From an uncultured Pseudomonadota bacterium (GTDB taxonomy: Bacteria; UBA10199; JADFYH01), in assembly GCA_964595045.1 (NCBI GenBank), contig CAZQOW010000001.1, positions 9,183-73,182 on the forward strand: a DNA stretch of 64,000 nucleotides, given 5' to 3'. Below the pieces are notes generated by a model. The model searched no databases and was not told the origin of the DNA. It worked only from the letters and a program-made list of their open reading frames with translations. The translations under genes were made by a program, and so were the position numbers. This document shows, piece after piece, positions 3,648 to 53,313 of the stretch; position 1 is the first letter of the stretch, and each line of letters starts with the position of its first letter.

Positions 3648-4553
3648 TTAATTTTTTAATAATTCTCCTAAAATCGCTTTTTGAATGTGAAGGCGATTTT
3701 CGGCTTGCTGAAAAATATAAGATTGTGGCCCATCCATTATTTCGCTGGTAATCTCTTCACCCCGATGAGCCGGGAGACAGTGAAGGATCATTGCTTTCGG
3801 AGCAGCATGACTTAAAAGTTTTTTATTAATCTGAAATGGTAAAAATTGGCTCTTTTTTTGTGGATCTTCTTTTTGCCCCATCGAAAACCATGTGTCTGTA
3901 TAAACTACATCAGCGTTTTTTACCGCTTTGATCGGATCAGACGAAATTGAAATTTGAGGATAACTGGTGATCTGTGTCAACAATCCACCCGACGGCAAAT
4001 GCCCCTGGGGAGAGGCAATTCTCAATTCAAAACCGAGCAGGATAGACGCTTCAATCCAGGAATTTGCCAGATTATTCCCATCTCCCACATAAGCAATTTT
4101 CAATTTTTTATAATTTTTTTTCACTTCAACAATCGTCAAAAGATCTGCCAAAATTTGAACGGGATGAAAAAGATCAGATAAACCGTTGATCACCGGAACA
4201 GCAGAATTCTTCGCCAACTCTTCCAGATTTTTCTGAAGAAAAGTACGAATCACAATTCCGTGAACATAACGTGAAAGAACTCTGGCGGTATCCTGATAAG
4301 ATTCTCCACGCCCAATCTGGCTTTCTTGTCCGCTGAGATAAATGGAAGTTCCACCCAATTCACTCATTGCGACTTCAAAAGAAACCCGAGTGCGCGTCGA
4401 ACTTTTTTCAAAAATCATCGCAAGTGTTTTTCCTGAAAGTGGTTTCGGATGTTTTTTCTTCCCGCGAAGAAGTTTGTATTGGCGAGCTTTTTTGAGAAGC
4501 TGATCCACTTCTTTTGGTTGAAGATCAAAAAGGGTGAGAAGATGTTTTTTCAT
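3648..4553 (-). CDS. argF: Ornithine carbamoyltransferase
   Basis: STRTR carbamoyl-phosphate motif (FEKSSTRTRVSFE), HCLPAHRGEE ornithine-binding motif, about 300 aa. Overlaps argD by 4 nt. Confidence 0.9.
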   Translation of the reverse strand: MKKHLLTLFDLQPKEVDQLLKKARQYKLLRGKKKHPKPLSGKTLAMIFEKSSTRTRVSFEVAMSELGGTSIYLSGQESQIGRGESYQDTARVLSRYVHGIVIRTFLQKNLEELAKNSAVPVINGLSDLFHPVQILADLLTIVEVKKNYKKLKIAYVGDGNNLANSWIEASILLGFELRIASPQGHLPSGGLLTQITSYPQISISSDPIKAVKNADVVYTDTWFSMGQKEDPQKKSQFLPFQINKKLLSHAAPKAMILHCLPAHRGEEITSEIMDGPQSYIFQQAENRLHIQKAILGELLKN

Positions 4554-17117: not shown

Positions 17118-17597
17118 ATGAATGCTTGGTACGTCATTCGAACGAAACTAAAAAAAGAAAAAGAAGTTATAAACCAGCTCAACAGAGCTCATTATGAACT
17201 CTTCTTTCCCCAAATGAATGCAGTTCCATCTCCTAAACCTCTTTTTCCTTGCTATCTCTTCATCCGAACAGATTTTACCGATCCAAATCATCACCGAATG
17301 GTCCGATACACTCGCGGAGTAAACAGAATTTTGGGAACTGGAACAGATCCTGCCCCTGTTTCGGATATCGTCATTGAAACTTTAAAAATGAAAACGGAAA
17401 ACGGTTTACTGCGGGAACAAGAACTTCTTTTTAAAGAAGGGGACGAGGTAAAGGTGAAAAAGGGAATCTTAAAAGATCTGCAGGGAATGATAGAAAAAAA
17501 TCTTCCGGCTGCAGGTCGGGTAAAAGTATTGTTTAAATGGTTGAACGTAAATATGCGAGCAACCTTGAAATACACTGATTTAGAAAGACATGGTTAA
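17118..17597 (+). CDS. NusG/RfaH-family specialised transcription antiterminator (NGN + KOW domains)
   Basis: NGN start WYVIRTKLKKEKEVINQL, KOW-like FKEGDEVKVKKGILKDLQGMIEK, 159 aa. First gene of a co-directional gene run of about 42 kb, preceded by a 360-nt leader. Confidence 0.7.
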   Translation: MNAWYVIRTKLKKEKEVINQLNRAHYELFFPQMNAVPSPKPLFPCYLFIRTDFTDPNHHRMVRYTRGVNRILGTGTDPAPVSDIVIETLKMKTENGLLREQELLFKEGDEVKVKKGILKDLQGMIEKNLPAAGRVKVLFKWLNVNMRATLKYTDLERHG

Positions 17598-20793: not shown

Positions 20794-21717
20794 ATGAGAA
20801 TTTTGTTTACTGGAGGTTCAAGTTTTTTGGCATTAAATTGGGCTTGTTGTATGAGAGAACAACACGAGATTATACTTTCTACTCATAAAAAAACTATCTT
20901 ATTAAAAGGTGTCAGAACAGTACCTGGAAATTTTGGTTCTTTTGATACCATTCGAGAAAATCTACAAAAAATTCAGCCGGATCTCATTATAAACACTGCC
21001 GCTATTACTAATGTAGATGAATGCGAGCATTATCCAGGAGCAGCTTATGAATTAAATGCTGAATTCACACACCGAATAGCAAAAGCTGCTTTTTTAGAAA
21101 AAATTTCTTTTATTCATATTTCAACTGATCAGCTTTTTGATGGTTCACAATCCTTTATAAAAGAAAATGAAATCCCCTCTCCTTTGAACGTATATGGTAA
21201 AACCAAAGCACTTGCTGAGCTTTATGTATTGCAAGCCGCGCCTACAGCTTTGATTTTGAGAACAAATTTTTTTGCCTGGGGACATAAATTTCGTAATTCT
21301 TTAACTGATTGGATTTTACAAAGTATGAGATCTGATCAAGAGATCAAAATGTTTAAAGATGTTTTTTTCACTCCTATATTGGCTGATAATTTGATTAAAA
21401 CTGCTCATATTCTTCTAGAAGCTAGAGAGAAAGGGATTTTTCATATCGTAGGAGATGAACGAATTTCAAAATATGATTTTGCAATTCGTATTGCAAAAAT
21501 TTTTGGTTTTTCTGAAGGACTTATAATTCCGATTCATCTCGCAGATAAAAAGTTGGCTGCAAGACGCCCTTTTGATATGTCTTTAAATAATCATAAAACC
21601 TGTTCAGCTACTGGTAAATGTCTTGGAGATATTGATATGCAAATCAACGAACTTAAGCTTCAACAAGAGAAAGGTAGAGCCGAAGAGTTAAGAACGGCTG
21701 TGGTAAACAACGTATGA
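20794..21717 (+). CDS. RmlD-like NAD(P)H-dependent sugar reductase (dTDP-4-dehydrorhamnose reductase family)
   Basis: RmlD substrate-binding-domain pattern (ILFTGGSSFLA, NTAAITNVDECE, YGKTKALAE), 307 aa. Glycine motif somewhat degenerate. Confidence 0.55.
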   Translation: MRILFTGGSSFLALNWACCMREQHEIILSTHKKTILLKGVRTVPGNFGSFDTIRENLQKIQPDLIINTAAITNVDECEHYPGAAYELNAEFTHRIAKAAFLEKISFIHISTDQLFDGSQSFIKENEIPSPLNVYGKTKALAELYVLQAAPTALILRTNFFAWGHKFRNSLTDWILQSMRSDQEIKMFKDVFFTPILADNLIKTAHILLEAREKGIFHIVGDERISKYDFAIRIAKIFGFSEGLIIPIHLADKKLAARRPFDMSLNNHKTCSATGKCLGDIDMQINELKLQQEKGRAEELRTAVVNNV

Positions 21718-22706
21718 TTTTAGATGGAAAATCAATCCTGGTAACTGGAGCTACTGGTTCATTTGGAAAACGTTTCATAAAAACTGTTTTAGAAAACCAC
21801 AAACCTAAAAGAATAGTTGCTTTCAGCCGTGATGAGCTCAAACAGTTTGAACTGCAACAGCATTTAAGCTCCCCTATTCTACATTATATGTTAGGTGATG
21901 TTCGCGACAAAGAAAGACTTTATCGTGCAACAGATGGAATAGACTGTGTTGTCCATGCCGCTGCCATGAAACAGGTCCCTTCCTCTGAACATAATCCAAT
22001 GGAAGCAATTAAAACTAATATTATTGGTGCAGAAAATATTATCAATGTTTGTATTGATCAGGGAATTGAACGTGTCATAGCTATGAGCACTGATAAAGCA
22101 GCTAATCCAGTAAATCTTTATGGCGCAACAAAACTATGCTCGGACAAGCTTTTTATAGCAGCAAACGATCTCTCTCGAAAACATCGCACCCATTTTTCAG
22201 TGGTACGCTATGGGAACGTTGTTGGTTCCCGAGGCAGTGTCATCCCTTTTTTCATGAAATGCCGACAAAGTGGCACTTTGCCGATTACAGATGTCCGTAT
22301 GACTCGCTTCTGGATTACTCTTAGTCAAGGAGTACAGTTTGTCATTCGCTCTTTAGAACGAATGAGAGGGGGAGAGCTATTCGTACCAAAAATACCATCC
22401 ATGAATATTATGGATGTCGCTAAAGTCGTAGCCCCAGAGTGTCAGACAGAAATTATAGGAATACGACCTGGAGAAAAGCTTCATGAAATTATGATTACGC
22501 GAGATGATTCAATTCATACTCTTGAATTTGACGACTTTTTTGTTGTTCAACCCTCTGCGGAGTGGTGGAATAAAAAAAATTATAAAGAGGAGTCGGGTGG
22601 CAAACCAGTCCCTGAAGATTTCCAATTTAGCAGTGATCTGAATAATCAATGGATGACAGTTGCAGAGTTAACAGATCTTTTAAAAAGAGAACCAATTGAA
22701 TTATGA
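21714..22706 (+). CDS. pseB: UDP-GlcNAc 4,6-dehydratase/5-epimerase (PseB/FlaA1-type short CapD)
   Basis: KSILVTGATGSFGKRFIKTVL, FSRDELKQ, HAAAMKQVPSSEHNPMEAIKTNIIGAENI, STDKAANPVNLYGATK. Near-collinear with PseB. Followed by a DegT aminotransferase. Confidence 0.8.
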   Translation: MILDGKSILVTGATGSFGKRFIKTVLENHKPKRIVAFSRDELKQFELQQHLSSPILHYMLGDVRDKERLYRATDGIDCVVHAAAMKQVPSSEHNPMEAIKTNIIGAENIINVCIDQGIERVIAMSTDKAANPVNLYGATKLCSDKLFIAANDLSRKHRTHFSVVRYGNVVGSRGSVIPFFMKCRQSGTLPITDVRMTRFWITLSQGVQFVIRSLERMRGGELFVPKIPSMNIMDVAKVVAPECQTEIIGIRPGEKLHEIMITRDDSIHTLEFDDFFVVQPSAEWWNKKNYKEESGGKPVPEDFQFSSDLNNQWMTVAELTDLLKREPIEL

Positions 22707-23941
22707 TTCCCTACGGTCAACACTTTATTGATGAAGAAGATATTCAGGCGGTTGTTGAGCTTTTGCGTACCGGATATCTTACACAAGGTCCAAAAATTAT
22801 TGAGTTTGAAAAAACAGTCGCCCAATATGTAGGGGCCAAATTTGCTGTCGCCACTTCTAGTGGAACAACGGCTCTACATCTTGCTTGTATTGCTGCTGGA
22901 ATTGAACCTGGAGATAATTTAATCACTTCTCCTAATACTTTTGTGGCTAGCTCTAATTGTGCCATTTACGTAGGTGCCATTCCTCACTTTGCTGATATTC
23001 ATCCGGAAACTTTAAATATCGATTCATTCAAACTTAAAGAAAAACTTAATGAACTGGGTCGTGTGAAGGCTATCATACCTGTTCACTTTGCAGGTTTTCC
23101 TTGTGAGATGCCCGTAATCAAAAAAATAGCCGATGATTTGGGCGCCAATATTATCGAAGATGGTGCACACGCTTTTGGCGCATCTTATCCAGATGGGGGG
23201 AAAGTGGGAAATTGTGCCCATTCTCTTATGACGGTTTTCTCTTTTCATCCGGTAAAAATGATTACTTCAGGAGAAGGAGGAATCATTACAACCAATGATG
23301 AGGATTGCTATCGAAACCTTCTACGATTTCGAAGTCACGGCATCAATAAAGGGAATGACCCTTTTATAGATCTTAAGCTAGCATTCGACGAAGGCAAAGT
23401 AAACCCTTGGTATTACGAAATGCAATATTTAGGTTTTAATTACCGTATTACTGATATTCAATGTGCTCTAGCTATTTCTCAAATGAAAAAGCTGGATCAG
23501 TTTGTGATGAAACGTCGTGAAATTGCCATTCGTTACGATGAAGCATTTGCCGATCTTCCTTACTTAATGAAAACGCAAGTGGAAGGAAGAGACTTAAGCA
23601 GTCATCATCTTTATGTAGTCCGTATTCAATTTGAAGAGCTTGGTATTTCTCGGCGTGAATTAATGGCAAAACTAGCCAGTTTGGGAGTTGGGAGCCACGT
23701 TCATTACATTCCGGTACCAATGCAACCTTACTATCGAGAACATTACCAAATTCCGGAAAGAGATTACCGCGAGGCTAATCAATACTATCAAGAAGCTCTC
23801 ACACTACCAATTTTTCCCTCTATGAAAGAGGAAGAGATCAGTAACGTCATCAACTCTGTTAAATCTATTTGTCTGCATGAATATAAAAAATCTCTCAATA
23901 CTGATCGTCGGCTGCGGCTCGATCGGCAAGCGACACGCTAA
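22703..23941 (+). CDS. pseC: DegT/DnrJ/EryC1-family aminotransferase (PseC-like, UDP-4-keto-6-deoxy sugar 4-aminotransferase). 3' end probably about 70 nt shorter than the ORF.
   Basis: SSGTTALHLA, FSFHPVKMITSGEGG (Lys-PLP region), 412-aa ORF. The last ~22 aa overlap the next gene and look like read-through. Confidence 0.75.
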   Translation: MIPYGQHFIDEEDIQAVVELLRTGYLTQGPKIIEFEKTVAQYVGAKFAVATSSGTTALHLACIAAGIEPGDNLITSPNTFVASSNCAIYVGAIPHFADIHPETLNIDSFKLKEKLNELGRVKAIIPVHFAGFPCEMPVIKKIADDLGANIIEDGAHAFGASYPDGGKVGNCAHSLMTVFSFHPVKMITSGEGGIITTNDEDCYRNLLRFRSHGINKGNDPFIDLKLAFDEGKVNPWYYEMQYLGFNYRITDIQCALAISQMKKLDQFVMKRREIAIRYDEAFADLPYLMKTQVEGRDLSSHHLYVVRIQFEELGISRRELMAKLASLGVGSHVHYIPVPMQPYYREHYQIPERDYREANQYYQEALTLPIFPSMKEEEISNVINSVKSICLHEYKKSLNTDRRLRLDRQATR

Positions 23942-24881
23942 AAACCTTCTTCAATGCGGAGTCTACAAAATTTGTGGTGTCGACCCTAACGTTCAACGAC
24001 GGGAGGAAATGTGTTCAATCACAAACACTCAAAGTTTTGCTTCCATGGAAGAAGCTTTGATTAACGATTCTTTTGATGCCGCTTTTATCACATCGCCCAC
24101 TTCTTCGCATATTACAGATGCCTTATATGCTGCCAACTTTAACTGTCATCTCTTTATTGAAAAACCTTTATCGCACAGTCTTGAGCAGCTAAATGAGCTG
24201 ATCGAAATTGTTCGGAGTAGAAGAATTAAGGGACATCTTGGAAGCAATTGGAAGTTTCATCCTTCTTTCAAACGGATAAAAAAAATTCTCGAAAATAACG
24301 AAATTGGAAAACTGCTGTCGGTTCGTTGCCAAGCAGGTCAATATCTTCCCGATTGGCATCCTTGGGAAGATTATCGCAAAGGATACTCAGCCAATAAAAA
24401 AATGGGGGGGGGAATCCTTCTAGATTGTCATGAGTTTGATTATTTAACCTGGTTTGTGGGTGAACCTGAAAAAATTGCCTGTTTTACCGATAAAACAAGT
24501 TCTTTAGAAATTGACACAGAAGATGTCGCTGAAGTGATTCTGAAATTCAAAAACGGTTCTATCGGTGAAATTCATGTAGATTATATTCAACGTGCATACC
24601 AAAGAAATTATGAATTCTTTGGTGAAGAAGGCTCTCTGTTTTGGAATTTCAATTCAAAAAAAGTTCGCCTCTATTTAGCTCGTGATAAGTCTTGGCAAGA
24701 ATGGCAAGAACCGGAAGGTTATGATTTAAATCAAATGTATCTTGATCAAACCTCTCACTTTTTAAATGTATTAGCGGATGAAGAAAAGCCTATTACTCCA
24801 CTGGATCGTGGACGTGATGTACTTTCATGGATCTTAGCGGCAAAACAAGCTTCGGAAAACAACACAGTAATAAGGATATAA
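23877..24881 (+). CDS. Gfo/Idh/MocA-family NAD(P)-dependent oxidoreductase. Contains a G9 homopolymer at 24406-24414.
   Basis: N-terminal LSILIVGCGSIGKRHAKNL Rossmann, EKPL motif (LFIEKPLSHS), 334 aa. Confidence 0.75.
   Translation: MNIKNLSILIVGCGSIGKRHAKNLLQCGVYKICGVDPNVQRREEMCSITNTQSFASMEEALINDSFDAAFITSPTSSHITDALYAANFNCHLFIEKPLSHSLEQLNELIEIVRSRRIKGHLGSNWKFHPSFKRIKKILENNEIGKLLSVRCQAGQYLPDWHPWEDYRKGYSANKKMGGGILLDCHEFDYLTWFVGEPEKIACFTDKTSSLEIDTEDVAEVILKFKNGSIGEIHVDYIQRAYQRNYEFFGEEGSLFWNFNSKKVRLYLARDKSWQEWQEPEGYDLNQMYLDQTSHFLNVLADEEKPITPLDRGRDVLSWILAAKQASENNTVIRI
24406..24414 (+). repeat. G9 homopolymeric tract inside the Gfo/Idh/MocA oxidoreductase CDS (candidate slipped-strand phase-variation site)
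   Basis: aaaaaaATGGGGGGGGGaatcc encodes K-K-M-G-G-G-I in frame. It is the only G-run of 8 or more noticed in the window. Confidence 0.6.
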
Positions 24882-24882
24882 T

Positions 24883-25890
24883 ATGAACTCACTGAAGATC
24901 ATTGCTGAAGTAGCGCAAGGCTATGAAGGAAAACCCGAGCTCGCTGAAATGCTTGTCAAAGGAGCGGCAGCAGCAGGGGCAGACGCAGTCAAGTTCCAGC
25001 TTATTTATGCAGATGAATTGGCAACCCCTGATTATAAACACTTTCAACTTTTTCAATCTCTAGAAATGCAAGATGCTGTTTGGTTGAAAATTGCCTCTCT
25101 CGCTCAAGAAAAAAACATATCTCTCTTTTTGGATGTCTACGGTGCAAAGAGTTTAAAGCTTGCAGAACATATGCAAGTGTCTGGTGTCAAAATCCATAGC
25201 ACTGACATGCAAAATCTCGATCTACTTAAATCGATATCTAAATCAAAAATTCCCCTTATTTTTCTATCGATCAGCGGTTGTCTTCGAGAAGAAGTTCATC
25301 AAGCGATCGAGATCATGGGAGAAAAAAACATTGTTCTTCTCCATGGCTTTCAAAGCTATCCGACACCGATTGAAGCAAATCAAATCAAACGATTATCAAC
25401 GCTCATGACTCAGTTTGGAAACCGAAAAAATATTGGCTACGGGTTCGCAGATCATGTGCCTGTCGAAGATGAACTTCGCTTTACCCTCGCGGCTGTAGCG
25501 ATTGGTTTCGGAGTGAGCTACTTAGAAAAGCATTTGACACTTTCCAAAGTAATGAAACTAGAAGATCACGAGTCCGCCCTCTCTCCGGATGAGTTTTTAC
25601 GCTTTGTTCGCTTCATGAGGCAGTGCCACCAAGCTGTAGGCGAAACTGATCCTCTCAAGGGTGAATTTACAACGAATACTTCAGAACTAGACTACCGACG
25701 AATGACTCATAAACATGTCGTCACCGCACGAAAATTAGAATCCGGGACCCTCTTAACACCGGAGCTTTTGACCTTAAAAAGAACTGCCGCAGCCAATCCA
25801 CTCTATGATATTAAAAGCATCTATGGAAAACGCCTCACTAAAAGTCTGGAGCAGGGGGTAGCCGTTACCATTGAAGTATTGGAGACCTAA
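24883..25890 (+). CDS. NeuB-family nonulosonic-acid synthase paralog (SpsE-like; AQGYEG variant of the AGxNHNG loop) with C-terminal SAF domain
   Basis: IIAEVAQGYEGKPELAEMLVKGAAAAGADAVKFQ aligns with the NeuB N-terminus. C-terminal SAF-like HVVTARKLESGTLLTPELL, 335 aa. Confidence 0.65.
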   Translation: MNSLKIIAEVAQGYEGKPELAEMLVKGAAAAGADAVKFQLIYADELATPDYKHFQLFQSLEMQDAVWLKIASLAQEKNISLFLDVYGAKSLKLAEHMQVSGVKIHSTDMQNLDLLKSISKSKIPLIFLSISGCLREEVHQAIEIMGEKNIVLLHGFQSYPTPIEANQIKRLSTLMTQFGNRKNIGYGFADHVPVEDELRFTLAAVAIGFGVSYLEKHLTLSKVMKLEDHESALSPDEFLRFVRFMRQCHQAVGETDPLKGEFTTNTSELDYRRMTHKHVVTARKLESGTLLTPELLTLKRTAAANPLYDIKSIYGKRLTKSLEQGVAVTIEVLET

Positions 25891-25892
25891 TC

Positions 25893-26639
25893 ATGAAACG
25901 TCGACTTGTCGCCTCTCTTGCCTGCCGTAATAATGGATCACGTCTTTATGGCAAGCCACTTCAAAGAATTTTAGAGAATGTTACTATTCTTGACCAAATC
26001 ATCACTGCACTTAAAACATTTCCAGTCATCGATGAAATTGTTCTTGGTGTTTCTGAGGGGATCGACAATGCAGTTTTCGTCGATATTGCTCATGCACACA
26101 ACATTTCGTATATTTATGGAGACCCTACAGATGTTCTCATGAGGCTCATTCAATGTGGAAGATCCGGTAAGGCAACTGATGTTTTTAGAATCACCACCGA
26201 ATGCCCTTGGTTTGCTTATGATTTGTTAAATATAGTTTGGGAAAAACATATCAAACAAAGCAATGATATTACTGTTTGCGATCGCTTGCCAGAAGGGCTT
26301 CACTTTGAAATTTATACTCTAGATGCATTGGAAAAATCCCATCAAAGAGGAACTTCGAAAGACCGTTCGGAGTTCTGCTCTAATTATCCTCGAATGAATC
26401 CAAAAGAATTCAAAATCGATGTAATATTGCCACCCGAAAAATTTCAACGGATGGATCTCCGCGTCACTGTTGATTATCCTGAAGATTTAATCCTCTGCCG
26501 TGAAATTGCAAAAGCCCATCTTGATTACATGCCGCTCATCTCGGTTGAACAGATTATTAGCTTTCTCGATTCAAGACCCGACTTGAAAGATCTCACAAAA
26601 TCTTTTGTCGTGCCCAAACCTCTCTGGGATGTTTTATAA
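25893..26639 (+). CDS. Cytidylyltransferase, SpsF/PseF-like (CTP_transf_3 family), candidate CMP-NulO synthetase
   Basis: ASLACRNNGSRLYGKPLQ matches the (A)RxxSxRLxGK motif, 248 aa. Immediately downstream of a NeuB-like gene. Confidence 0.6.
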   Translation: MKRRLVASLACRNNGSRLYGKPLQRILENVTILDQIITALKTFPVIDEIVLGVSEGIDNAVFVDIAHAHNISYIYGDPTDVLMRLIQCGRSGKATDVFRITTECPWFAYDLLNIVWEKHIKQSNDITVCDRLPEGLHFEIYTLDALEKSHQRGTSKDRSEFCSNYPRMNPKEFKIDVILPPEKFQRMDLRVTVDYPEDLILCREIAKAHLDYMPLISVEQIISFLDSRPDLKDLTKSFVVPKPLWDVL

Positions 26640-26656: not shown

Positions 26657-27709
26657 ATGAACTATTGGGCGCAAAAAAAAGTTTTTAATTTCCCTTTGCC
26701 TGATCGGCTGGATTTAACCTTGCTGCTCAGAGGAATCCTGGCAATTATGGTTGTCTGGTGGCATACGAATGGTTATCGTATCACTAATACTCCGATTGCC
26801 TTCCTAAATATTGCAGGACGAATCTGCGTTTGGGTCTTTTTCATTTTGTCTGGATATACTATTGGTTATGCTTTTGAGAAAAAACGATATCAATTTAATA
26901 CAAAAGAAATTTTCTATTTCTACAAAAATCGACTGGTCCGAATCTATCCCCTTTTGCTTTTCATTACTGTTTTATCATTTTTCATAAATACCCATTTTAG
27001 CCAAGATCCTATCCCGTGGACTAGTTCCCTATTTATGAAAGAATTTTTGATGCTTCAATGGAATCATACCTATTAACTCGTCGGTGTCTTTTGGGCCTTG
27101 GGAGTCAAAATCCAGTTCTATCTCATCGCACCGCTGTTAGCTTTTATCCTCCAAAAAACGGGAAAGTCATTCTCCATGATTGCCCTTACATTTGCTTTCT
27201 TTTTATTCATACCCACTCTGGCAAAGTTTATTTCTCACTATTCGTGGGTCAATCGATCACTGACAGGAAATTTATCTCATTTTTATGCCGGATTTATTTT
27301 AGATTATTTAATAGACAAAATCGCTCCCTCAAAACTTGATACAATATCACCCATCCTTATTATGCCTCGCCTCTCTTATTATTTTATATTCCACTTTATG
27401 GATGTATCAAAAAAACCAGGTTTGTTTTGGGCTTCAGGACCTCTGTCAGTCGATTTAGCAGGAGTCGGACTTTTAACAGCACACGTTTTATGGGATAGAG
27501 AAAAAATTTCTTTAAGTGGGCTAGCATTCATTCTTTCAACCTTAGAGGTATTTTCCTATGGAATCTATGCCTGGCACGGACTTTTGGTGCAATACTCAGA
27601 TTACTGTGAATCTCATTTTTTCGTTACTCTTTTAGCAACAATCATTCTCTCTATTCTTTCTTATTTTTTGATCGAAAAACCGCTATTGTGTTATCGTCGT
27701 TCCACTTAA
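26657..27709 (+). pseudogene. Acyltransferase-3 (OafA-like O-acyltransferase) gene interrupted by a single in-frame TAA at 27074-27076
   Basis: ORFs 26657-27076 and 27098-27709 are in the same frame (both start positions are 2 mod 3). Across the stop the sequence reads ...QWNHTY*LVGVFWALGVKIQFYLIAPLL, i.e. the conserved acyltransferase-3 W.L..E.QFYL motif. The joined product would be 351 aa and multi-TM. Confidence 0.6.
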
Positions 27710-27715
27710 AAAGTT

Positions 27716-29002
27716 ATGATCCACTATACTTCTTCTGAAAAATTACTTGAGCAAGCTCTAAAAACCATTCCGCTCGGTTCTCAAACTTTTAGTAAAAGCA
27801 AAACTCAATTTCCACTGGGTGTCTCCCCATTTTTCTTGAAAAAAGGACGAGGGTCCCATGTATGGGACGTTGATAGAAATGAGTACATCGATTTTATTAA
27901 CGGGCTGGCATCGATTACTCTCGGCTATTTAGATCCTGATGTGACTTCTGCAGTACAAGAGCAATTGCAAGAGGGAGTTATTTTTAGCCTTCCTCATCCC
28001 ATTGAAATTAAGGTTGCGGAAAAAATTTCTGAGATGATTCCTTGTGCTGAGATGGTTCGTTTTGCCAAAAACGGTTCCGATGCGACCGCAGGAGCAGTTC
28101 GGCTCGCCCGAGCTTACACAAACCGCGATCATATTGCTGTTTGCGGCTACCATGGTTGGCAAGATTGGTATATAGGATCAACCACCCGAAACCGTGGAGT
28201 TCCAAAAGCAACCAGGAAGCTGACGCATACTTTCATTTATAACGACATCGAATCTCTTCATCAGTTATTTTCGAATTACCCCGACTTGATCGCCGCTGTT
28301 ATTCTCGAACCGATGAATGTGACAGATCCATTGCCAGGCTTCTTAGAAGAGGTAAAAACACTCACCCATCGCCATGGTACCCTGTTAATCTTTGATGAAA
28401 CGATCACCGGTTTTCGCTTTGCAAATGGAGGGGCACAAGAGCTCTTTAACGTCGTTCCAGATCTGGCGACTTTTGGCAAAGGCTTGGCAAATGGTTATCC
28501 TCTTTCTGCCATCGCTGGACGTGCTGAAATCATGAAACTGATGGAAGAAATCTTTTTTTCATTCACTTTCGGGGGAGAAACATTATCACTCGCAGCGGCC
28601 CTCGCTGTGATGAAGAAATTACAGCAACAACCGGTCATTAAGCATCTTTGGCAGCAAGGAGAAAAACTCATTCATGGGCTTCGGGAAATCATCCAAAAAA
28701 ACAGACTCGAAGAATTTTTAAGCGTTTCCGGAAAACCGTGTTGGTCATTTCTACTCATCAAAGATACCCCAAAATGCAGCTCATCTGAAATCAAGACTCT
28801 TTTGCTGCAAGAAGTTTTCGCCCGAGGGATTCTGACAGTCGGCACGCACAACATGAGTTATGCTCACTCAAATTCAGATATTAGACGGCTAATGGTTGTC
28901 TACGAAGAAGTGATACCGATTCTAAAAAAAGCAATCGATGGTTTCCCTCTTTCAGATCTTTTACGATGCCATCCTCTCGAGCCACTTTTTAAAGTACGAT
29001 GA
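27716..29002 (+). CDS. Class III PLP aminotransferase, glutamate-1-semialdehyde aminomutase-like
   Basis: FAKNGSDATAGAVRLARAYT, LIFDETITGFRF, TFGKGLANGYP, 428 aa. Confidence 0.75.
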   Translation: MIHYTSSEKLLEQALKTIPLGSQTFSKSKTQFPLGVSPFFLKKGRGSHVWDVDRNEYIDFINGLASITLGYLDPDVTSAVQEQLQEGVIFSLPHPIEIKVAEKISEMIPCAEMVRFAKNGSDATAGAVRLARAYTNRDHIAVCGYHGWQDWYIGSTTRNRGVPKATRKLTHTFIYNDIESLHQLFSNYPDLIAAVILEPMNVTDPLPGFLEEVKTLTHRHGTLLIFDETITGFRFANGGAQELFNVVPDLATFGKGLANGYPLSAIAGRAEIMKLMEEIFFSFTFGGETLSLAAALAVMKKLQQQPVIKHLWQQGEKLIHGLREIIQKNRLEEFLSVSGKPCWSFLLIKDTPKCSSSEIKTLLLQEVFARGILTVGTHNMSYAHSNSDIRRLMVVYEEVIPILKKAIDGFPLSDLLRCHPLEPLFKVR

Positions 29003-29478
29003 CAAAACTTACTTTAAGACTCGCCTCAGGCGATGATGCAAAACTCTTGTGGGAATGGGCGAATGATCCAGAGACGCGCAAATTCTCCTTTTCGAGCGCG
29101 CCAATTGCTTGGCAAACTCATCAAACATGGCTCGCATCGAAATTGAGCAACCCATCTTATTTTTTTCGAATCGCTCTTGATGCCTCTGAAGTACCGATCG
29201 GATATATTCGTTGTGAAAAAAAAGAAAATAGAGGTCTAATTTCAGTCAGTGTCAGCCCACTCATGCGGAGAGAAGGATATGGCAGCAGAATCATTCAATT
29301 GGCAACTCAAGTGATCTTTAAAGAAATGAATGTCGAAATGATTCATGCTTATATTAAAAAAGAGAACCAAGCTTCTCAAAAGACTTTCGAAAAAGCCGGC
29401 TTCCAATACGAAGGGATTGTCGTTCTGGAACAGCATCAAGCTCTTCAATTTACATATCAAAGGAATCAGACCTTATGA
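28999..29478 (+). CDS. pseH: GNAT N-acetyltransferase (PseH-like)
   Basis: 159 aa GNAT fold (RREGYGSRII..., KENQASQKTFEKAGF). Sits between an aminotransferase and pseI. Confidence 0.55.
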   Translation: MTKLTLRLASGDDAKLLWEWANDPETRKFSFSSAPIAWQTHQTWLASKLSNPSYFFRIALDASEVPIGYIRCEKKENRGLISVSVSPLMRREGYGSRIIQLATQVIFKEMNVEMIHAYIKKENQASQKTFEKAGFQYEGIVVLEQHQALQFTYQRNQTL

Positions 29479-30524
29479 ATGAAATCACTATTGGTAAAAA
29501 AAAGATTGGGCCTGCTCATCCGGTCTATATCATTGCAGAAATCTCGGCAAATCATCATCAAAATTTCGATCAGGCGGTAGAGTTAATCAAAGCCTCTAAA
29601 GAAGCGGGGGTCGATGCTGTCAAATTACAAACCTATACCGCCGAAACGATCACACTCGATTCAAATAAAAAGCATTTTCAGATTAAAGGGAAAACCCTTT
29701 GGGATGGGCAGCGACTTTATGATCTATATAAAGATGCATATACTCCCTGGGAATGGCAACCGCGTTTAAAAGTAATTGCAGAACAGATCGGTCTCGATCT
29801 TTTTTCTTCTGCTTTCGATTCAACCGCGGTCGATTTTTTAGAAGGAATGAATATTCCGGCGCACAAGATAAGCTCATTTGAGATTGTTGATCTTCCACTC
29901 ATTGAAAAAATGGCAAAAACCAAAAAACCGCTTATCATTTCAACAGGAATGGCAACTTTAGAAGAAATTTCTGAAGCAGTGAGCACCGCTCGTTCTGCCG
30001 GGGCTGATCAAATCGCTCTTCTCAAATGTACCAGCGCGTATCCCGCTCCACCCGACTCGATGAGGCTCCGAACAATTCCGCATTTGTCAGAAACCTTTCA
30101 AATTCCAATAGGCCTTTCCGACCATACGCTGGGAGTCATTGTTCCAGTCGCCGCAGTCGCGATGGGGGCGTGTATTATTGAAAAACATATCACTTTATCC
30201 ACAAATATTTCGGGTCCTGACAGTGCCTTCTCACTCGAACCGGATGAATTCAAACAAATGGTGGAAAGTGTGCGAATAACCGAACAAGCTTTGGGAAAAG
30301 TTCATTATGGAAGAAGTGAACAAGAGGAAAAAAACCATCTTTTTCGGCGATCACTCTTTATCGTGAAAGATGTGAAGTTGGGTGAAACTCTTACAGAAGA
30401 GAATATTCGCTCTATTCGACCGGGGCATGGCCTTTCTCCAAAGCATTTTAAAGAAATCATCGGACGAAAGGCGACTCAAGATATTCCCGCCGGAACCCCT
30501 CTCGACTGGAGCCTTGTTCAATGA
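29475..30524 (+). CDS. pseI: Pseudaminic acid synthase (NeuB family with C-terminal SAF domain)
   Basis: YIIAEISANHHQNFDQAVELIKASKEAGVDAVKLQTY, the PseI-type N-terminal signature. SAF domain present (LFIVKDVKLGETLTEENIRSIRPG), 349 aa. Followed by a PseG-like gene. Confidence 0.8.
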   Translation: MNEITIGKKKIGPAHPVYIIAEISANHHQNFDQAVELIKASKEAGVDAVKLQTYTAETITLDSNKKHFQIKGKTLWDGQRLYDLYKDAYTPWEWQPRLKVIAEQIGLDLFSSAFDSTAVDFLEGMNIPAHKISSFEIVDLPLIEKMAKTKKPLIISTGMATLEEISEAVSTARSAGADQIALLKCTSAYPAPPDSMRLRTIPHLSETFQIPIGLSDHTLGVIVPVAAVAMGACIIEKHITLSTNISGPDSAFSLEPDEFKQMVESVRITEQALGKVHYGRSEQEEKNHLFRRSLFIVKDVKLGETLTEENIRSIRPGHGLSPKHFKEIIGRKATQDIPAGTPLDWSLVQ

Positions 30525-31624
30525 ACATTACTATCCGTGTTGATGCATCTTCTCTCATGGGCTCAGGACACGTGATGCGTTGTATTGCACTGGGGGATAC
30601 TTTCGCCGAGAACGGATCAGAAGTATCTTTTATCTGCCGCGAGCTTGAAGGGCATCTTTGCGACTTCATGGAAAACCGAGGATTAAAGGTCTATCGTCTA
30701 CCCCCTCCAAAAAAAACATTATCGAAAGAGATCGGTTCTATACGTCATAAAGACTGGTTAGGAGTCCCTTTGGAAGAAGACTGCATGCAAACCGAGGAGA
30801 TTTTAAGAACGATTCCAACACCCGATTGGTTAATTCTCGATCATTATGCGCTCGATGTTAAATGGGAAAACTTTGTACGGCGGTATGTTAGAAAAATTCT
30901 GGTGATCGATGATCTCGCTGATAGAGCACATGACTGCGACATCCTTCTCGACCAAAACGTCTCTGAGTCACATGCGAATATCTACCAACAGCTCACTCCA
31001 AAGAATTGCGAAATCATACTCGGTCCTCGCTACTCTCTTCTACGTTCAGAATTTCGTAAAAAGCGTTCAACGATGCGCCAACGAGATGGAAAAATAAAAA
31101 GAATTCTTATCTCATTCGGAATGATTGATCAAACGAATGAAACTTTTAAAACGCTCAAAGTAATCGAATCTCTTCAAGAAAAAAACTTCAGTTGTGACGT
31201 TGTTGTCGGTCAACAAAATTGGCACAAAAACGAGATCGAGAATTTTTGCAAACAGTTGCCACACACCCGTTTTCACTTTCAAGTTGACTATCTCTCTGAA
31301 TTAATTGCTGCTGCGGATCTAGCGATTGGAGCATCCGGATCTACCCATTGGGAACGTTGTTGTCTCGGCTTACCTTCTCTTCTTATTTCCGTCGCTTTCA
31401 ATCAGGAATCAATTGGTAAAACATCTCAAGAAAATGGGACTGGTATTTATCTCGGCACTTCCGAAGAAGTAACCTCTGAAAGAATCGCAAATGAGATAAA
31501 AAACCTTTTTACTGATTCAAAGCGAATGCTTGACTTATCTCGTAATGCCAAAGCGATCGTAGACGGTGAAGGAGCTTTACGTGTTTATGATAGAATGTTA
31601 AAAAAAATAACTACAAAATTATAA
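30521..31624 (+). CDS. pseG: PseG-like UDP-sugar hydrolase (GT-B, UDP-2,4-diacetamido-2,4,6-trideoxy-L-altropyranose hydrolase family)
   Basis: N-terminal ITIRVDASSLMGSGHVMRCIALGDTF, the PseG S..GxGH.mR motif, 367 aa. Confidence 0.7.
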   Translation: MNITIRVDASSLMGSGHVMRCIALGDTFAENGSEVSFICRELEGHLCDFMENRGLKVYRLPPPKKTLSKEIGSIRHKDWLGVPLEEDCMQTEEILRTIPTPDWLILDHYALDVKWENFVRRYVRKILVIDDLADRAHDCDILLDQNVSESHANIYQQLTPKNCEIILGPRYSLLRSEFRKKRSTMRQRDGKIKRILISFGMIDQTNETFKTLKVIESLQEKNFSCDVVVGQQNWHKNEIENFCKQLPHTRFHFQVDYLSELIAAADLAIGASGSTHWERCCLGLPSLLISVAFNQESIGKTSQENGTGIYLGTSEEVTSERIANEIKNLFTDSKRMLDLSRNAKAIVDGEGALRVYDRMLKKITTKL

Positions 31625-31635
31625 CGTATAAAAAA

Positions 31636-32193
31636 ATGATAACAAATGATCACTTAATATTCAGAGGCGGCCATCTTCGTGTTTTAAGAGAAGAAGATGT
31701 TCATCAAAGATACGTAGATGGGCTCAATAACTCCCTCGTTAATCGCTATCTTGGTAACGTAAAAAAAACGACGCAAACTCTAGAAACTGTCTCTCAATTT
31801 GTTAAACAAAACCTACAAGATCCACATGGTATCTTGTTTGGAGTTTGGCCAGACAACTCAAAGAACCACTGTGGCACCGTTCGATTACATAGTATTGATG
31901 ATTATCATTTAACAGCGAATATTGGGATTTGTATTTTCGAAACTGACTTTTGGGGACAGGGCATCGGAACCAAATCTATTCAGATCATTACGCAATGGGG
32001 AATAGACACTTTAAAACTTCGCTGGATTGAATCAGGAATTTATATCGACAATAAAGCATCGCAAAAAGCATTCTTAGCTGCCAACTACAAATGGATATGT
32101 GATTTAGAAGGGAAGCATCTCTTCGATGGCTTACCAACTATTACTCGTATTTATGCAGCCCGCAATAATTATTGTGAAAAAAAAACATCCTAA
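31636..32193 (+). CDS. GNAT-family N-acetyltransferase (RimL/PseH-like), second copy
   Basis: 185 aa. LRVLREEDVHQRYVDGLNN then GQGIGTKSIQIITQWGID, an acetyl-CoA binding pattern. Confidence 0.55.
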   Translation: MITNDHLIFRGGHLRVLREEDVHQRYVDGLNNSLVNRYLGNVKKTTQTLETVSQFVKQNLQDPHGILFGVWPDNSKNHCGTVRLHSIDDYHLTANIGICIFETDFWGQGIGTKSIQIITQWGIDTLKLRWIESGIYIDNKASQKAFLAANYKWICDLEGKHLFDGLPTITRIYAARNNYCEKKTS

Positions 32194-34069
32194 AGCTCTT
32201 ATCGTATTACGACTACATCCTTTAAATTTCCCTTTGATTTTAATTGGAAGTTTTTTTTTCAATATTGTCTATTGGAAATCAGAAAAAATTCCAGAATCGT
32301 GGCTTAAGAGATTCGAAGTCATAGATCCTGAAGATTACTTTACATACGAAGAATGGATAGAGGTCACTGCTCAAGCCCAGAAGAGTTGGAAAATAAAGAT
32401 TGAACCATGGAACGACAAAACCTCTTTTTTATGGAAACAAATTAATATTACGGTTGATTTCAGTAATACATGGCTACAATGGCTTGGAATATACTTTGAA
32501 GAGTACTTTTTTTTTCTCCATTTATCTAAACGTTGGATCGAGAAAGCTATTAGCATTAAAGCAGTCAAATTCGCTGATTTGATGATATTTGACTTAGCCT
32601 CCGACTTAAAATACATAGTTTCAGCTTCTTCCCTCAGCATCATAAAAATTTTCTACTATCTCGATTTGGCATGGCAATGGTCTCTTGCTTTAATATTTTG
32701 CTTTCGCCAACTTGGAAGGCTTATTCAAAGGAGAGACAAATCTGTAAATACTAGAGAAACATACCGTTACCTATGGACTGGAATCAGCCCACAAGAAGCA
32801 GCTAGCGAACCGAACCAACTCGATTTTGCATTTCTTGTTGAAAGAGGAATAATAAACTCTAAAGATTGTCTTTTCATCCTAGCCAAACAACCATCAAATA
32901 CGACTATCAGTTATCTTAGTAAAAGAAATATCCATTGGACCACCACTCAAGACATTGGGAAATGGCTTAACATTCGAGAACGAGTTCTAGCACTTCTTGG
33001 ACTTTTCAAAACTCTATTGCATGGATGTTTTTTGAGAAAGAAACAGATTCATACCCCCCTTATCTTGCAGTTTTGCTTTAATACCCAATCATGGATTTTT
33101 TTCATAAAAAAAATCAAACCGGAAATCTATTTTTCTACTGTGAGTGAATCCTGGCCTGAACGTCCTGAGGTGTCTGTTATAAACGCTTTAGGTGTCAATA
33201 CAGTGAACTGGTTTTATTCGGCAAATATATTTTCGTATTCTCAGACAAATCCTGCCTTTGAAGATCTCGGTATCTTGAGAAGTATTTCTGTCGCACGAGA
33301 AATATGGGTTTGGAACGAAACAGTCGCTCAGTGGTTTAATTTAAGAAATATTCAACCAAAACCTGATCAACCAAAAATCAAAGTCACAGGACCCATAATG
33401 TGCGGAAATTCCCAATGGCTAAAAAAAACCCCAGCTGATGTTCGAAGCTCTTATGGAATTAAATCAGAAAAAACGACAAAATTTATTGCCGTATTTGATG
33501 TGCCTACCATTACTAGAGCATACCGGATTAAAATAGGTCATGGCCCATCTCTTTACCCCTTAAAGATGCTCGAACAATTTTTTGATGATCTCTGTAACCT
33601 CTTAGATGCTTTCGAAAATGTAAACTTGATTATAAAACCTAAAAGATCATTAGAAGATCCCCAAAGAGACTATTCAAAAGGAATGTGGCGCCTCATAAAT
33701 CCGACGGGACATTATCAAGAAAGAAAAAAAATCACTCTTCTCCCACATAATATTGATCCGTATTTACCGATCGCCATGTCAGACTTCTGTGTAGGTCTCC
33801 CCTTTACCTCTCCAGTTCTTGTCGGTCTAAGCAGTGGCAGAGATGGTCTTTTTCATGACCCACTTTCTTGTGTAAATTATTTTTATCCTAAGGAAATAAC
33901 CCCCTTGATTACTCATGGAAAAAAAGAGTTTTTAGAACGAATCGATCAATGGATGAAGGGGAACAAAATCAAAATACGCAACCAATCAGTTGCAGAAGCT
34001 TACTGTGGCTCTTCGGTTGATCCTGCAATACAATTTGCAACTCTTGCCTTATCAAACCCCAGTAATTAA
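32126..34069 (+). CDS. Uncharacterized large protein with GT-B-like C-terminal half. Candidate CMP-NulO/Kdo-type transferase. Start uncertain.
   Basis: C-terminal NLIIKPKRS...KITLLPHNIDPYLPIAMSDFCVGLPFTSPVLVGLSSGRDGLF looks like a GT-B nucleotide-sugar-binding domain. The 5' end overlaps the GNAT gene by 68 nt in another frame, so the true start is likely downstream. Confidence 0.4.
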   Translation: MAYQLLLVFMQPAIIIVKKKHPKALIVLRLHPLNFPLILIGSFFFNIVYWKSEKIPESWLKRFEVIDPEDYFTYEEWIEVTAQAQKSWKIKIEPWNDKTSFLWKQINITVDFSNTWLQWLGIYFEEYFFFLHLSKRWIEKAISIKAVKFADLMIFDLASDLKYIVSASSLSIIKIFYYLDLAWQWSLALIFCFRQLGRLIQRRDKSVNTRETYRYLWTGISPQEAASEPNQLDFAFLVERGIINSKDCLFILAKQPSNTTISYLSKRNIHWTTTQDIGKWLNIRERVLALLGLFKTLLHGCFLRKKQIHTPLILQFCFNTQSWIFFIKKIKPEIYFSTVSESWPERPEVSVINALGVNTVNWFYSANIFSYSQTNPAFEDLGILRSISVAREIWVWNETVAQWFNLRNIQPKPDQPKIKVTGPIMCGNSQWLKKTPADVRSSYGIKSEKTTKFIAVFDVPTITRAYRIKIGHGPSLYPLKMLEQFFDDLCNLLDAFENVNLIIKPKRSLEDPQRDYSKGMWRLINPTGHYQERKKITLLPHNIDPYLPIAMSDFCVGLPFTSPVLVGLSSGRDGLFHDPLSCVNYFYPKEITPLITHGKKEFLERIDQWMKGNKIKIRNQSVAEAYCGSSVDPAIQFATLALSNPSN

Positions 34070-35993: not shown

Positions 35994-36818
35994 ATGCCCA
36001 ACAAAATAAAAAAAACCTATATTATCGCCGACATTTCTTCTAATCACATGGGTAATATGGCAATAGCCCAAGCAATGATTGATGTAGCTGCCAATATTGG
36101 TATTGACTGCGTCAAGTTTCAATCTTGGAAGGCAGGCTCACTCCGTAAAGATTTTCCAGATTACAATGCCACCTACAACCGCCACAAAAAAACCGAGCTT
36201 TCCGAAGATGACCATTTACTGTTGATAGAACATTGTAAAAAAAATAGCATCGACTTCCTCACTACCTGCTTTGATCTAAATCGTATTGATTTTTTAGCTT
36301 CTCTTGGAATCGACACAATCAAAGTTGCCAGTCCTGATTGTGGAAGTATTCGGCTTCTTGAATCTTTAATGAAACATTTTAAAAAACTGATTATTTCTAC
36401 GGGCATGACGCAGGATACAGATGTTCAAAAAGCAATTGAAGTGACACGAGGTCATGATGTTGTTTTTCTTCATTGTGTATCGCTCTATCCTACCCCCCCT
36501 GAAAAAGTAAATATGAAGCGATTAGACTGGCTTAAATCAATGGGGGTTCGTGTCGGTTACAGTGATCACACCATGGGAGTGGATGCTGGGAAGCTTGCCA
36601 TATCTCGCGGAGCAGAGATTTTGGAAAAACATTATACTCTCTCCCGTGACTTGCCTGGTAAAGATCAAGCAATGTCTATGATGCCAGAAGAGTTGGCAGA
36701 GCTCTGCCGTTTTGCGAAAGTGGTTGAGCGGATGGATGGGGTATCGCAACCAGAACTCTCTGAAGATGAAAAAAAACTTCGGGCAATTTATGTTGGAAAA
36801 TGGGGAAATAACCGATGA
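35994..36818 (+). CDS. Short NeuB-family nonulosonic-acid synthase (TIM-barrel only, no SAF domain)
   Basis: YIIADISSNHMGNMAIAQAMIDVAANIGIDCVKFQ and GYSDHTMG, 274 aa. Ends before where a SAF domain would begin. Overlaps neuC. Confidence 0.7.
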   Translation: MPNKIKKTYIIADISSNHMGNMAIAQAMIDVAANIGIDCVKFQSWKAGSLRKDFPDYNATYNRHKKTELSEDDHLLLIEHCKKNSIDFLTTCFDLNRIDFLASLGIDTIKVASPDCGSIRLLESLMKHFKKLIISTGMTQDTDVQKAIEVTRGHDVVFLHCVSLYPTPPEKVNMKRLDWLKSMGVRVGYSDHTMGVDAGKLAISRGAEILEKHYTLSRDLPGKDQAMSMMPEELAELCRFAKVVERMDGVSQPELSEDEKKLRAIYVGKWGNNR

Positions 36819-46033: not shown

Positions 46034-47176
46034 TTGATCATGAAAAACAGACAAGAATACATTAAACACCATAGCTTTAAAGAATTCCATTCAAATGTAG
46101 ATACAAAACAGGAGACTCAGCGTGAAAGGGTCATTAGAATTTTGCACGGAGCAAAACAGTCTCAGCATGAAAAAATATTCCAATCCATTCTTTCCGATCT
46201 AGAAAACTATTCGAACAGTGAGATCGACTTTAAAATTACTCTTCATATTGCGGATGAGCTCTCTAAGATAGAAGATATAGATGTTTCACGCTATCTTTAC
46301 CATCGATATCGATACGATATATATCCAAAAAAGAAAATATTGGACCAATTCCCCCCTTATTTGCAGATTGAACCAACCTCAATATGTAATTACCGATGTG
46401 TTTTTTGTTATCAAACAGATGCTGAATTCACAAATAAGAAAAATGGTTTTATGGGGTTTATGTCGTTTGAACTATTTAAGATAATCATCGATCAGATTGA
46501 AGATAAAATCGATTTTTTATCACTCGCATCCAGAGGTGAACCACTTTTGTGTCGTGATATTGATCAAATGCTCGAGTACTGCCAAGGAAAATTTTTAGGG
46601 CTTAAGCTGAACACAAATGCGTCCATGCTAAATGAAAAACATTCTCATGCAATTTTATCTGGTGGGGTAAATACTGTAGTCTTCTCTGCCGATGCAGCAA
46701 ATGAGAATTTGTATAGTCAATTGCGTGTCAATGGAAGTTTAAAAAAAATTTTAGCAAACATTCAAATGTTTCAAAAAATTAAGGAAACACATTATCCCAA
46801 TTCGAAAATTATCACCCGTGTTTCAGGGGTGCGATACTCCGATAGTCAAGATATGGACTCAATGATTAACCTTTGGAGTAGTCTAGTGGATCAGATTTCG
46901 TTTGTGGCCTATAACCCTTGGGAAAACATCTATGCCTCTGAACCTAATGAAATAAAAAAAGCCTGTAGTGATCTTTGGCGCCGAATGTTTATTTGGTTCG
47001 ATGGCACTGTTAACCCATGCGATACCGATTATAAATCAAGCCTTAAAATTGGGAACATCAAAGAAAATCGAATTGAAGATCTTTGGAGTTCAATTGATTA
47101 TCAATTCCTTCGTGAACAACATATCAAATCTAAACGTAGCTGCGTTAATCCTTGTAACCGTTGTACGGTCATATAA
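46034..47176 (+). CDS. Radical SAM enzyme with C-terminal SPASM/twitch-like Cys cluster
   Basis: CxxxCxxC as IEPTSICNYRCVFCYQ. C-terminal CSDLWRRMFIWFDGTVNPCDTDY...SCVNPCNRC. 380 aa with an N-terminal extension of about 110 aa. Confidence 0.75.
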   Translation: MIMKNRQEYIKHHSFKEFHSNVDTKQETQRERVIRILHGAKQSQHEKIFQSILSDLENYSNSEIDFKITLHIADELSKIEDIDVSRYLYHRYRYDIYPKKKILDQFPPYLQIEPTSICNYRCVFCYQTDAEFTNKKNGFMGFMSFELFKIIIDQIEDKIDFLSLASRGEPLLCRDIDQMLEYCQGKFLGLKLNTNASMLNEKHSHAILSGGVNTVVFSADAANENLYSQLRVNGSLKKILANIQMFQKIKETHYPNSKIITRVSGVRYSDSQDMDSMINLWSSLVDQISFVAYNPWENIYASEPNEIKKACSDLWRRMFIWFDGTVNPCDTDYKSSLKIGNIKENRIEDLWSSIDYQFLREQHIKSKRSCVNPCNRCTVI

Positions 47177-52515: not shown

Positions 52516-53313
52516 ATGGAATATGCTCCTATTACAGTGATCATTCCTTGCTATTGCTGCAAACAAACGATTGAAAAAACATTAGAATCGGTCGTTCACC
52601 AAACTTATCGTCCAAAAGAACTATTTTTAATCGACGATGCTAGTCCAGATGGAACGATACAAATACTCTATCAACTACAAAATAAGTACGGTTCAGACTG
52701 GATTCAGGTTTTTCAATTACCATTTAATCAAGGCCCTTCTACTGCACGAAATTATGGATGGAAAAGATCAAGCCAACCCTACATTGCTTTCCTAGACGCA
52801 GATGATATTTGGCATCCTCAAAAAATTGAAATTCAATATAAATGGATGATAGAGCATCCTCAATATGTCATCACAGGGCATCGATATCGATATTTGAGAA
52901 ACAATCTGCCATTCTTTCAGATTAGATCAATCCCGAAAAAAAAAAACCTTAGTAAAACTAAAATGCTTTTTTCAAATTATTTGAGCACTCCATCGGTAAT
53001 GCTGAAACGTGAACTTTTAGAAAGATTTGATCCAAAAAAGCGATATGCTGAAGATTATCTTTTATGGCTTACCCTCCTCTGTCGTGGCTATCTGGCAGCA
53101 TACATAGACCTCCCACTTGTGTATCTTTTGAAACACGCTTATGGAAGCGGCGGCTTAAGTAAAAACCTCTGGAAGATGGAAAAAGGGGAATTGGAAGTTT
53201 ATTGGCAACTCCACAAAGATCGTTATCTTTCAATCTTCCCTCTTTTTATTTTGCTCGGTTTTTCACTTATAAAATACTTACGGCGAGTAATACTATCTTT
53301 TTTTCGAACGTAG
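52516..53313 (+). CDS. Family 2 glycosyltransferase. Contains an A11 tract at 52936-52946.
   Basis: ITVIIPCYCCKQTIEKTLESVVHQTY, LIDDASPDGT, DADD motif. 265 aa. Confidence 0.75.
   Translation: MEYAPITVIIPCYCCKQTIEKTLESVVHQTYRPKELFLIDDASPDGTIQILYQLQNKYGSDWIQVFQLPFNQGPSTARNYGWKRSSQPYIAFLDADDIWHPQKIEIQYKWMIEHPQYVITGHRYRYLRNNLPFFQIRSIPKKKNLSKTKMLFSNYLSTPSVMLKRELLERFDPKKRYAEDYLLWLTLLCRGYLAAYIDLPLVYLLKHAYGSGGLSKNLWKMEKGELEVYWQLHKDRYLSIFPLFILLGFSLIKYLRRVILSFFRT

Follow-up and report, generated by a model that had tools for sequence, protein, structure and literature searches.

The run of nine guanines (G9) described here is most plausibly an incidental, slippage-prone homopolymer that results from codon choice at an obligatory Gly-Gly-Gly motif, a reading to which a probability of roughly 60% is assigned. 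The run lies in a Gfo/Idh/MocA-family oxidoreductase gene within a 64,000-nt stretch of DNA from an uncultured bacterium (hereafter the window; GC content 37.7%), where it is the only G or C run of at least eight bases. A preliminary description of this DNA proposed the tract as a candidate phase-variation switch. The structural part of that proposal holds, in that the tract is in frame, sits in a Pse locus, has a length in the range at which slippage occurs in Campylobacter, and is converted to an early stop by a change of one G. The functional part was not supported by the tests that were run, which point to a glycine motif that is encoded by mixed codons in relatives, tract-bearing homologues that are scattered, avoidance of such runs in the gene family, the lack of significant enrichment over 64 kb, and a mid-gene position.

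On the + strand of the window, G9 occupies positions 24404..24412 and is composed of the last base of an ATG codon (M176), two GGG codons (G177 and G178), and the first two bases of a GGA codon (G179). The surrounding codons AAA AAA ATG GGG GGG GGA ATC encode K K M G G G I (residues 174–180), so the in-frame KKMGGGI context that had been described is borne out by the open reading frame (ORF). The run itself had also been recognized correctly, at coordinates (24406–24414) that need to be moved 2 nt to the left. Directly 5′ of the tract lies an A7 run (24396..24402, + strand) made up of the two lysine codons and the A of the ATG, and together they form a low-complexity A7-T-G9 stretch. Two shorter C7 runs were found exactly where they had been reported, at 36493–36499 in a NeuB gene lacking the SAF domain and at 48417–48423 in a 2-hydroxyacid dehydrogenase gene; a C6 run placed at 33048–33053 actually spans 33054–33059.

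The gene that carries the tract (23877..24881, + strand) encodes a 334-aa protein that was assigned to the Gfo/Idh/MocA-family NAD(P) oxidoreductases by Pfam matches, motifs, and homologue alignment. It matches the families GFO_IDH_MocA, GFO_IDH_MocA_C, and GFO_IDH_MocA_C3 with scores above the gathering cut-offs (PF01408, 61.2 bits versus 24; PF22725, 83.0 versus 27; PF02894, 60.9 versus 22.9), and it combines an N-terminal Rossmann NAD(P)-binding domain with a C-terminal alpha/beta domain, as is characteristic of the family. A Rossmann GxGxxG motif is found at residues 12–17, an EKP motif at 95–97, and the segment GGGILLDCH at 177–185, and the homologues of known structure with PDB codes 3ezy and 3cea align over residues 5–329. 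A search of NCBIfam returned no equivalog-level match for the protein (IolG, 130 bits against a cut-off of 355). The gene begins within pseC, with a 65-nt overlap at the 3′ end of the latter (23877–23941), a region in which PseC extends as a 22-aa tail past its profile. Public gene calls begin later, at Met57 in the Logan call (278 aa) and, judging from its length of 290 aa, apparently at Met45 in the NCBI call, and either start would remove the Rossmann GxGxxG motif. Because homologues align to the protein from residues 2–8 onward, the true start is, by this criterion, Met1.

The oxidoreductase gene is embedded in a polysaccharide locus of the kind that specifies surface structures, between pseB and pseC on one side and pseH, pseI, and pseG on the other. 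In the same operon and 5′ of it lie pseB (21714–22706, + strand; PseB, 520.6 bits against a cut-off of 407.75) and pseC (22703–23941, + strand; PseC, 485.9 bits against 423.5). A pseH-like gene, pseI, and pseG (28999..31624, + strand) lie downstream and would complete the Pse pathway; PseI (491.4 bits, cut-off 340.25) and PseG (306.5 bits, cut-off 153.55) score above their NCBIfam equivalog cut-offs, as do PseB and PseC, whereas the PseH-like GNAT protein, with 59.7 bits, falls below its curated cut-off of 93.1. For PseF, the remaining protein of the pathway, two CTP_transf_3 genes at 41043 and 45272 are putative candidates. The locus as a whole is long and co-directional, is headed by wzz, a gene for an SLBB-domain (Wza-like) exporter, a nusG paralogue, and wzi, and also encodes glycosyltransferases and an ABC transporter. 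Three NeuB-family synthases are encoded in it, at 24883, 29475, and 35994.

Between pseC and the pseH-like gene, the oxidoreductase gene is followed on the + strand by genes for a divergent NeuB-family synthase (24883–25890), a 248-aa SpsF-like protein (25893–26639) that has no Pfam hit and weakly matches the N-terminal part of the 'spiro-SPASM' model TIGR04321, an Acyl_transf_3 protein (26657–27709), and an aminotransferase resembling GSA aminomutase (27716–29002). The oxidoreductase, the SpsF-like protein, and the GSA-aminomutase-like aminotransferase recur as a cassette next to pse genes in many phyla (loci L001–L162). Within 3-kb flanks, a homologue of the 248-aa protein is present near 85 of 160 homologous loci and the aminotransferase near 62 of 160, often beside pseB, pseC, pseG, or pseI. 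This recurrence, together with the position of the gene within a pse operon, makes the earlier label 'NulO-pathway oxidoreductase' reasonable. The product of the cassette appears to be uncharacterized, and a search of the literature on the three-gene combination yielded nothing useful.

The Acyl_transf_3 gene, which encodes an O-acyltransferase, is split by a single in-frame TAA (27074–27076) into two same-frame ORFs of 139 and 203 aa. Pfam profile positions 6–112 and 132–319 flank this stop, which is also present in an independently computed contig described below. The gene, which is two genes 3′ of the oxidoreductase, may be either a nonsense pseudogene or an allele, in its OFF state, for an enzyme that decorates the glycan. 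Such a broken neighbor would be expected if the inserted cassette (oxidoreductase, NeuB-like synthase, acyltransferase, and aminotransferase) were under relaxed selection and losing function, in which case a slippery run would be tolerated in a gene that is soon to become a pseudogene. We regard this early-decay explanation as improbable, because the reading frame of the oxidoreductase is uninterrupted from end to end and retains every motif of the family, the remaining cassette genes are intact, and the cassette is widely conserved beside pse genes in relatives.

Several other features of the locus were observed. The NusG-domain paralogue just before wzi at the head of the locus (159 aa; 17118–17597) resembles, as we take it, operon-specific antiterminators of the RfaH/UpxY type, and if it is one, it would presumably damp the polar effect of a frameshift in the oxidoreductase gene. 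Scans for internal promoters and terminators in the region of the tract gave only chance-level signals. The longest homopolymer of the window is an A11 run at 52936–52946 (CCG AAA AAA AAA AAC, encoding P K K K N), which lies mid-gene in a GT2 glycosyltransferase (52516–53313) and passes the usual poly-A/T cut-off (at least 10) for putative phase variation. Three 9-base homopolymers (A9 at 32177, T9 at 32251, and T9 at 32507) fall within the first 20% of a 647-aa ORF (32126–34069) that had been assigned to the precomputed Pfam family PFTS_polysacc, the A9 being inside a 68-nt overlap with the preceding GNAT gene. A radical-SAM/SPASM enzyme is encoded at 46034–47176 among genes for SDR, 2-hydroxyacid dehydrogenase, cyclase, inositol-monophosphatase-like, and CTP_transf_3 proteins, a setting that suggests a pathway for an unusual glycan substituent.

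The consequences of slippage were assessed by changing the tract length in silico. With G9, the full 334-aa protein is encoded, whereas G8 yields 181 aa (ending ..MGGESF*) and G10 yields 185 aa (ending ..MGGGNPSRLS*). After a −1 slip, translation would run into a TAG at 24421–24423 (+ strand), and after a +1 slip into a TGA at 24431–24433 (+ strand), both of them before or at His185. Both products lose the LLDCH segment, with the predicted catalytic residues Asp183 and His185, as well as the entire C-terminal domain. Among G lengths from 6 to 12, the frame is kept only by G9 and by lengths that differ from it by a multiple of 3. The claim that nine Gs leave the gene ON and that eight or ten truncate it is thereby confirmed, and since the truncations at 181 and 185 aa precede the predicted catalytic Asp/His, ON/OFF switching by slippage of G9 is mechanically possible. 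The tract would also be retained by formal screens for simple sequence repeats (SSRs), being a poly-G/C run of at least 7–8 inside an ORF in which a one-unit change leads to a premature stop. At least seven G/C is the accepted screening cut-off for putative phase-variable tracts (PMC6321876), and in Campylobacter jejuni, switching is frequent at tracts of G8–G9, nine being the most common poly-G length among phase-variable genes (PMC3401435).

Other copies of the gene were sought to establish whether its length is reproducible. A Logan contig (SRR23447887) is 100% identical to the window over 15.8 kb and likewise carries G9; its source is probably the sample that also yielded the window. A 290-aa NCBI-derived protein that falls into the same 90% cluster as the window oxidoreductase probably represents the window's own contig. 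Beyond the organism's own copy, scans of genome and metagenome contigs and a search of protein collections with the full-length sequence returned no orthologue with more than 55% identity. A query with the N-terminal 123 aa found no truncated (OFF) copy of this exact gene, with no match above 54% identity over most of the query and one fragment of 48% coverage that matched at 73% identity. A probable congener is represented by a contig (L082) whose HslU is 96% identical and whose shared flank has 86–90% nucleotide identity; the contig is syntenic on the arg-hslUV-wzz-wzi flank and stops short of the oxidoreductase. Another HslU (P0121) is 98% identical, and the nearest taxon-labelled relatives of HslU are Deltaproteobacteria-type MAGs, with at most 72% identity.

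These data bear on whether the run could be a sequencing or assembly artefact, with a true length that differs from nine or a run introduced by poly-G artefacts in the reads. Several sequencing platforms are prone to errors in homopolymers, and an error-ridden long-read contig (L164) has a spurious-looking deletion in the same motif. With G9, however, the 155 residues downstream of the tract align to homologues through to the C-terminus, and the encoded triple glycine is the invariant motif of the family. Because frame, motif, and downstream homology all require G9 and the two assemblies, which were computed independently, agree on it, an artefact is very unlikely and was rejected as an explanation.

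Whether the tract exceeds chance expectation was assessed with two types of shuffling. In dinucleotide-preserving shuffles of the window, a G9 or C9 run was present in 11 of 100 trials; when synonymous codons were shuffled in the 54 ORFs, 3.3% of trials gave a G run of at least nine, and 6% gave a run of that length in either G or C. In view of these frequencies, the description of the run as exceptional was overstated, and G9 is only marginally beyond chance expectation in the window. Three G/C runs of at least seven were observed in the 64 kb against 1.29 expected from the codon shuffle (P = 0.14), and no such run occurs in 20 kb of the probable congener contig. GGG accounts for 15% of glycine codons in the window. 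The oxidoreductase has 20 glycine codons, only two of which are GGG, and both are adjacent in the tract, a coincidence of 1 pair in 190 that was noticed post hoc. Long A/T runs in the coding sequence of the window are depleted (7 observed, 12.2 expected), and long homopolymers seem to be selected against in this organism, as in most others.

The behavior of the motif across the family was examined in 160 homologues from genome and metagenome collections, all of them at most 55% identical to the window protein and so more distant than sister strains. Of these 160, 158 have the triple glycine, which about 98% encode with mixed codons, and 149 of the 160 have no more than five consecutive Gs at this site. 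This is essentially the pattern that the preliminary description had named as evidence against a switch, namely conservation of the site as Gly-Gly-Gly with synonymous interruptions; a switch of recent origin would still be logically compatible with such a pattern. Runs of at least eight at the motif occur in two of the 160 relatives, both with intact genes (L026 with G10 and L106 with G8), in addition to a frameshifted homologue (L165) discussed below. Two GGG-GGG pairs at motif positions 1 and 2 were observed among the 158, where the product of the per-position GGG frequencies predicts ~2.2. Because the tract-bearing proteins (those of the window, L026, L106, and L165) share only 37–47% mutual identity and each has closer relatives (55–67%) that are tract-less, the tracts arose independently and sporadically. 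Retention of a tract with variable length was not seen across the homology group of relatives at most 55% identical.

Within-gene synonymous shuffling of the 158 intact homologues gave an expectation of 11.7 G/C runs of at least eight and 23.3 of at least seven, compared with 6 and 14 observed, respectively. On account of this deficit, such tracts are selected against, not for, in the family. Taken together, the run counts and the motif frequencies indicate a family signal of avoidance with occasional escapes at the rate set by codon usage, and the G9 of the window is one such escape from homopolymer avoidance.

Frameshifted homologues of more distant origin were recovered with the N-terminal 123-aa fragment, a search that returned short proteins of about 150–215 aa and that is therefore biased toward truncations near residue 180. 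In one of them (L165; ENA ERZ21862645, ctg33470l, a 29.9-kb contig with 42% GC), the motif reads CTG GGG GGG GGG C.., with a G10 tract at 4507–4516. There, G9 would be ON (328 aa), and G10 splits the gene into 181 + 155 aa while the rest of the operon is intact. The tract shares the NNG-GGG-GGG-GGN design of the window with one G added. In a second locus (L166; ENA ERZ1699357), an A9 run at 2961–2969, the counterpart of the A7 run of the window, lies in the lysine codons just 5′ of the motif; A8 would be ON, and A9 is out of frame and splits the gene within an operon that is otherwise intact. As assembled, these two loci show the KK-x-GGG segment to be apparently frameshift-prone, and they do not demonstrate reversible switching. 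Either frameshift may reflect biology or sequencing error, and the assembler-like contig name 'ctg33470l' suggests that the one in L165 may be a long-read homopolymer error. Another candidate for a natural frameshift (P0244, on contig L164) was rejected because every gene on the contig is fragmented, a sign of an error-ridden long-read assembly.

Based on these data, a simple model would suggest that the tract is a by-product of protein sequence and codon usage. The enzyme would need a turn of three glycines directly ahead of the predicted catalytic Asp/His, and in this lineage the first two glycines would happen to use GGG, which after an ATG would fuse into nine Gs. The resulting run would be a hot spot for replication slippage, like any G9, at a rate assumed from established knowledge of poly-G tracts, and slippage would generate null alleles (181 or 185 aa) at a higher frequency than is usual for coding sequence. 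We infer that G9 is present without adaptive tuning as a contingency switch. The position of the tract at 52% of the ORF, mid-gene and in the catalytic core, is consistent with this model: repeats are enriched near N-termini in genomes tuned for phase variation, and SSRs are generally suppressed in the middle of proteins (PMC3315296). Other observations run counter to an incidental origin. The gene has no GGG codons other than, as noted post hoc, the adjacent pair in the tract; it belongs to a surface-glycan locus, a setting in which contingency loci are classically found; nine is the modal length of phase-variable poly-G in Campylobacter (PMC3401435; PMC6321876); and L165 has the same tract design with one extra G and its gene split in two. 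It is also somewhat unexpected that G9 has survived purifying selection, given the depletion of A/T runs in the window and the avoidance of G/C runs in the family.

Alternatively, G9 may be a genuine contingency locus that is retained because stochastic slippage between G9 and either G8 or G10 reversibly toggles the oxidoreductase, a possibility that we consider real but doubtful. With similar reservation, such toggling might affect a modification or a second nonulosonic sugar of the capsule or O-antigen and thereby diversify the surface against phages or grazers. Tract type, length, in-ORF location, and immediate stops in both shifted frames all conform to the formal definition of an SSR switch, and the location within a Pse/NulO polysaccharide locus, the confinement of both GGG codons to the tract, and the homologue L165 at an OFF length, with G10 where G9 would be ON, fit with it as well. 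Furthermore, the same locus contains the A11 run in the GT2 glycosyltransferase and the nonsense-inactivated O-acyltransferase, which suggests on/off variation of glycan decorations in the population. Against a contingency locus, G/C tracts do not significantly exceed expectation over the 64 kb, the gene family is depleted in G/C runs, no relative conserves the tract and those bearing one are scattered, and the run sits mid-gene on an invariant motif. In addition, the L165 frameshift may be a long-read error, and the two assemblies are identical, probably because they come from one sample.

At present, the case is chiefly of methodological value. Codon usage alone leads one to expect a long G run at the conserved Gly-Gly-Gly in about 1–2% of homologues, and a tract of this kind should be termed a phase-variation switch only when length variation is seen at the level of reads or between strains. 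A more far-reaching scenario, which we consider unlikely, is that an uncultured, apparently free-living bacterium toggles a Pse-related surface-glycan modification by poly-G slippage at the invariant triple glycine of a Gfo/Idh/MocA oxidoreductase and that the NNG-GGG-GGG-GGN arrangement has been recruited independently elsewhere, with L165 caught in the OFF state. If true, homopolymer-driven phase variation of surface glycans would occur beyond the host-adapted pathogens that served to define it, Campylobacter-style contingency loci would be found in environmental bacteria as well, where selection would likely come from phages, and the tracts would provide a cheap marker for phage-driven glycan switching in metagenomes. 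The mechanism is well known under either reading.

The enzyme and its tract can be compared with three known systems. With Gfo/Idh/MocA oxidoreductases of the inositol 2-dehydrogenase-like kind, among them the best PDB matches 3ezy and 3cea, the window protein shares an N-terminal Rossmann domain, the EKP motif, and the segment (S/G)GG-x-x-x-D...H, in which G9 is located here. The defining mark of this subfamily is that its genes are associated in genomes with those for the 248-aa SpsF-like protein and the GSA-aminotransferase-like protein and with pse genes.

The poly-G/C contingency genes for flagellar glycosylation, capsule, and LOS in C. jejuni have in common with the window an intragenic G tract with a modal length of nine. 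They include Cj1295, a homopolymeric-tract gene that modifies a pseudaminic-acid glycan (PMC3068675; PMC3401435; PMC6321876), and the window tract resembles these genes further in lying in a locus for pseudaminic/nonulosonic-acid glycans and in the immediate truncation that follows a one-G change. In contrast, the C. jejuni tracts are numerous and over-represented, vary between isolates, and were shown to switch, whereas the window contains a single tract in 64 kb, located on an invariant catalytic-core motif in an uncultured bacterium.

A third precedent is the poly-A tract in inlA of Listeria monocytogenes, an incidental homopolymer that acts as a frameshift hot spot (PMC2831843). G9 differs from hot spots of this type in being much rarer than A/T runs are in AT-rich genomes, and its surface-glycan context makes an adaptive reading conceivable. 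What it shares with them is a homopolymer created by codon choice, inactivation of the gene by a single indel, and selection that generally acts against such runs.
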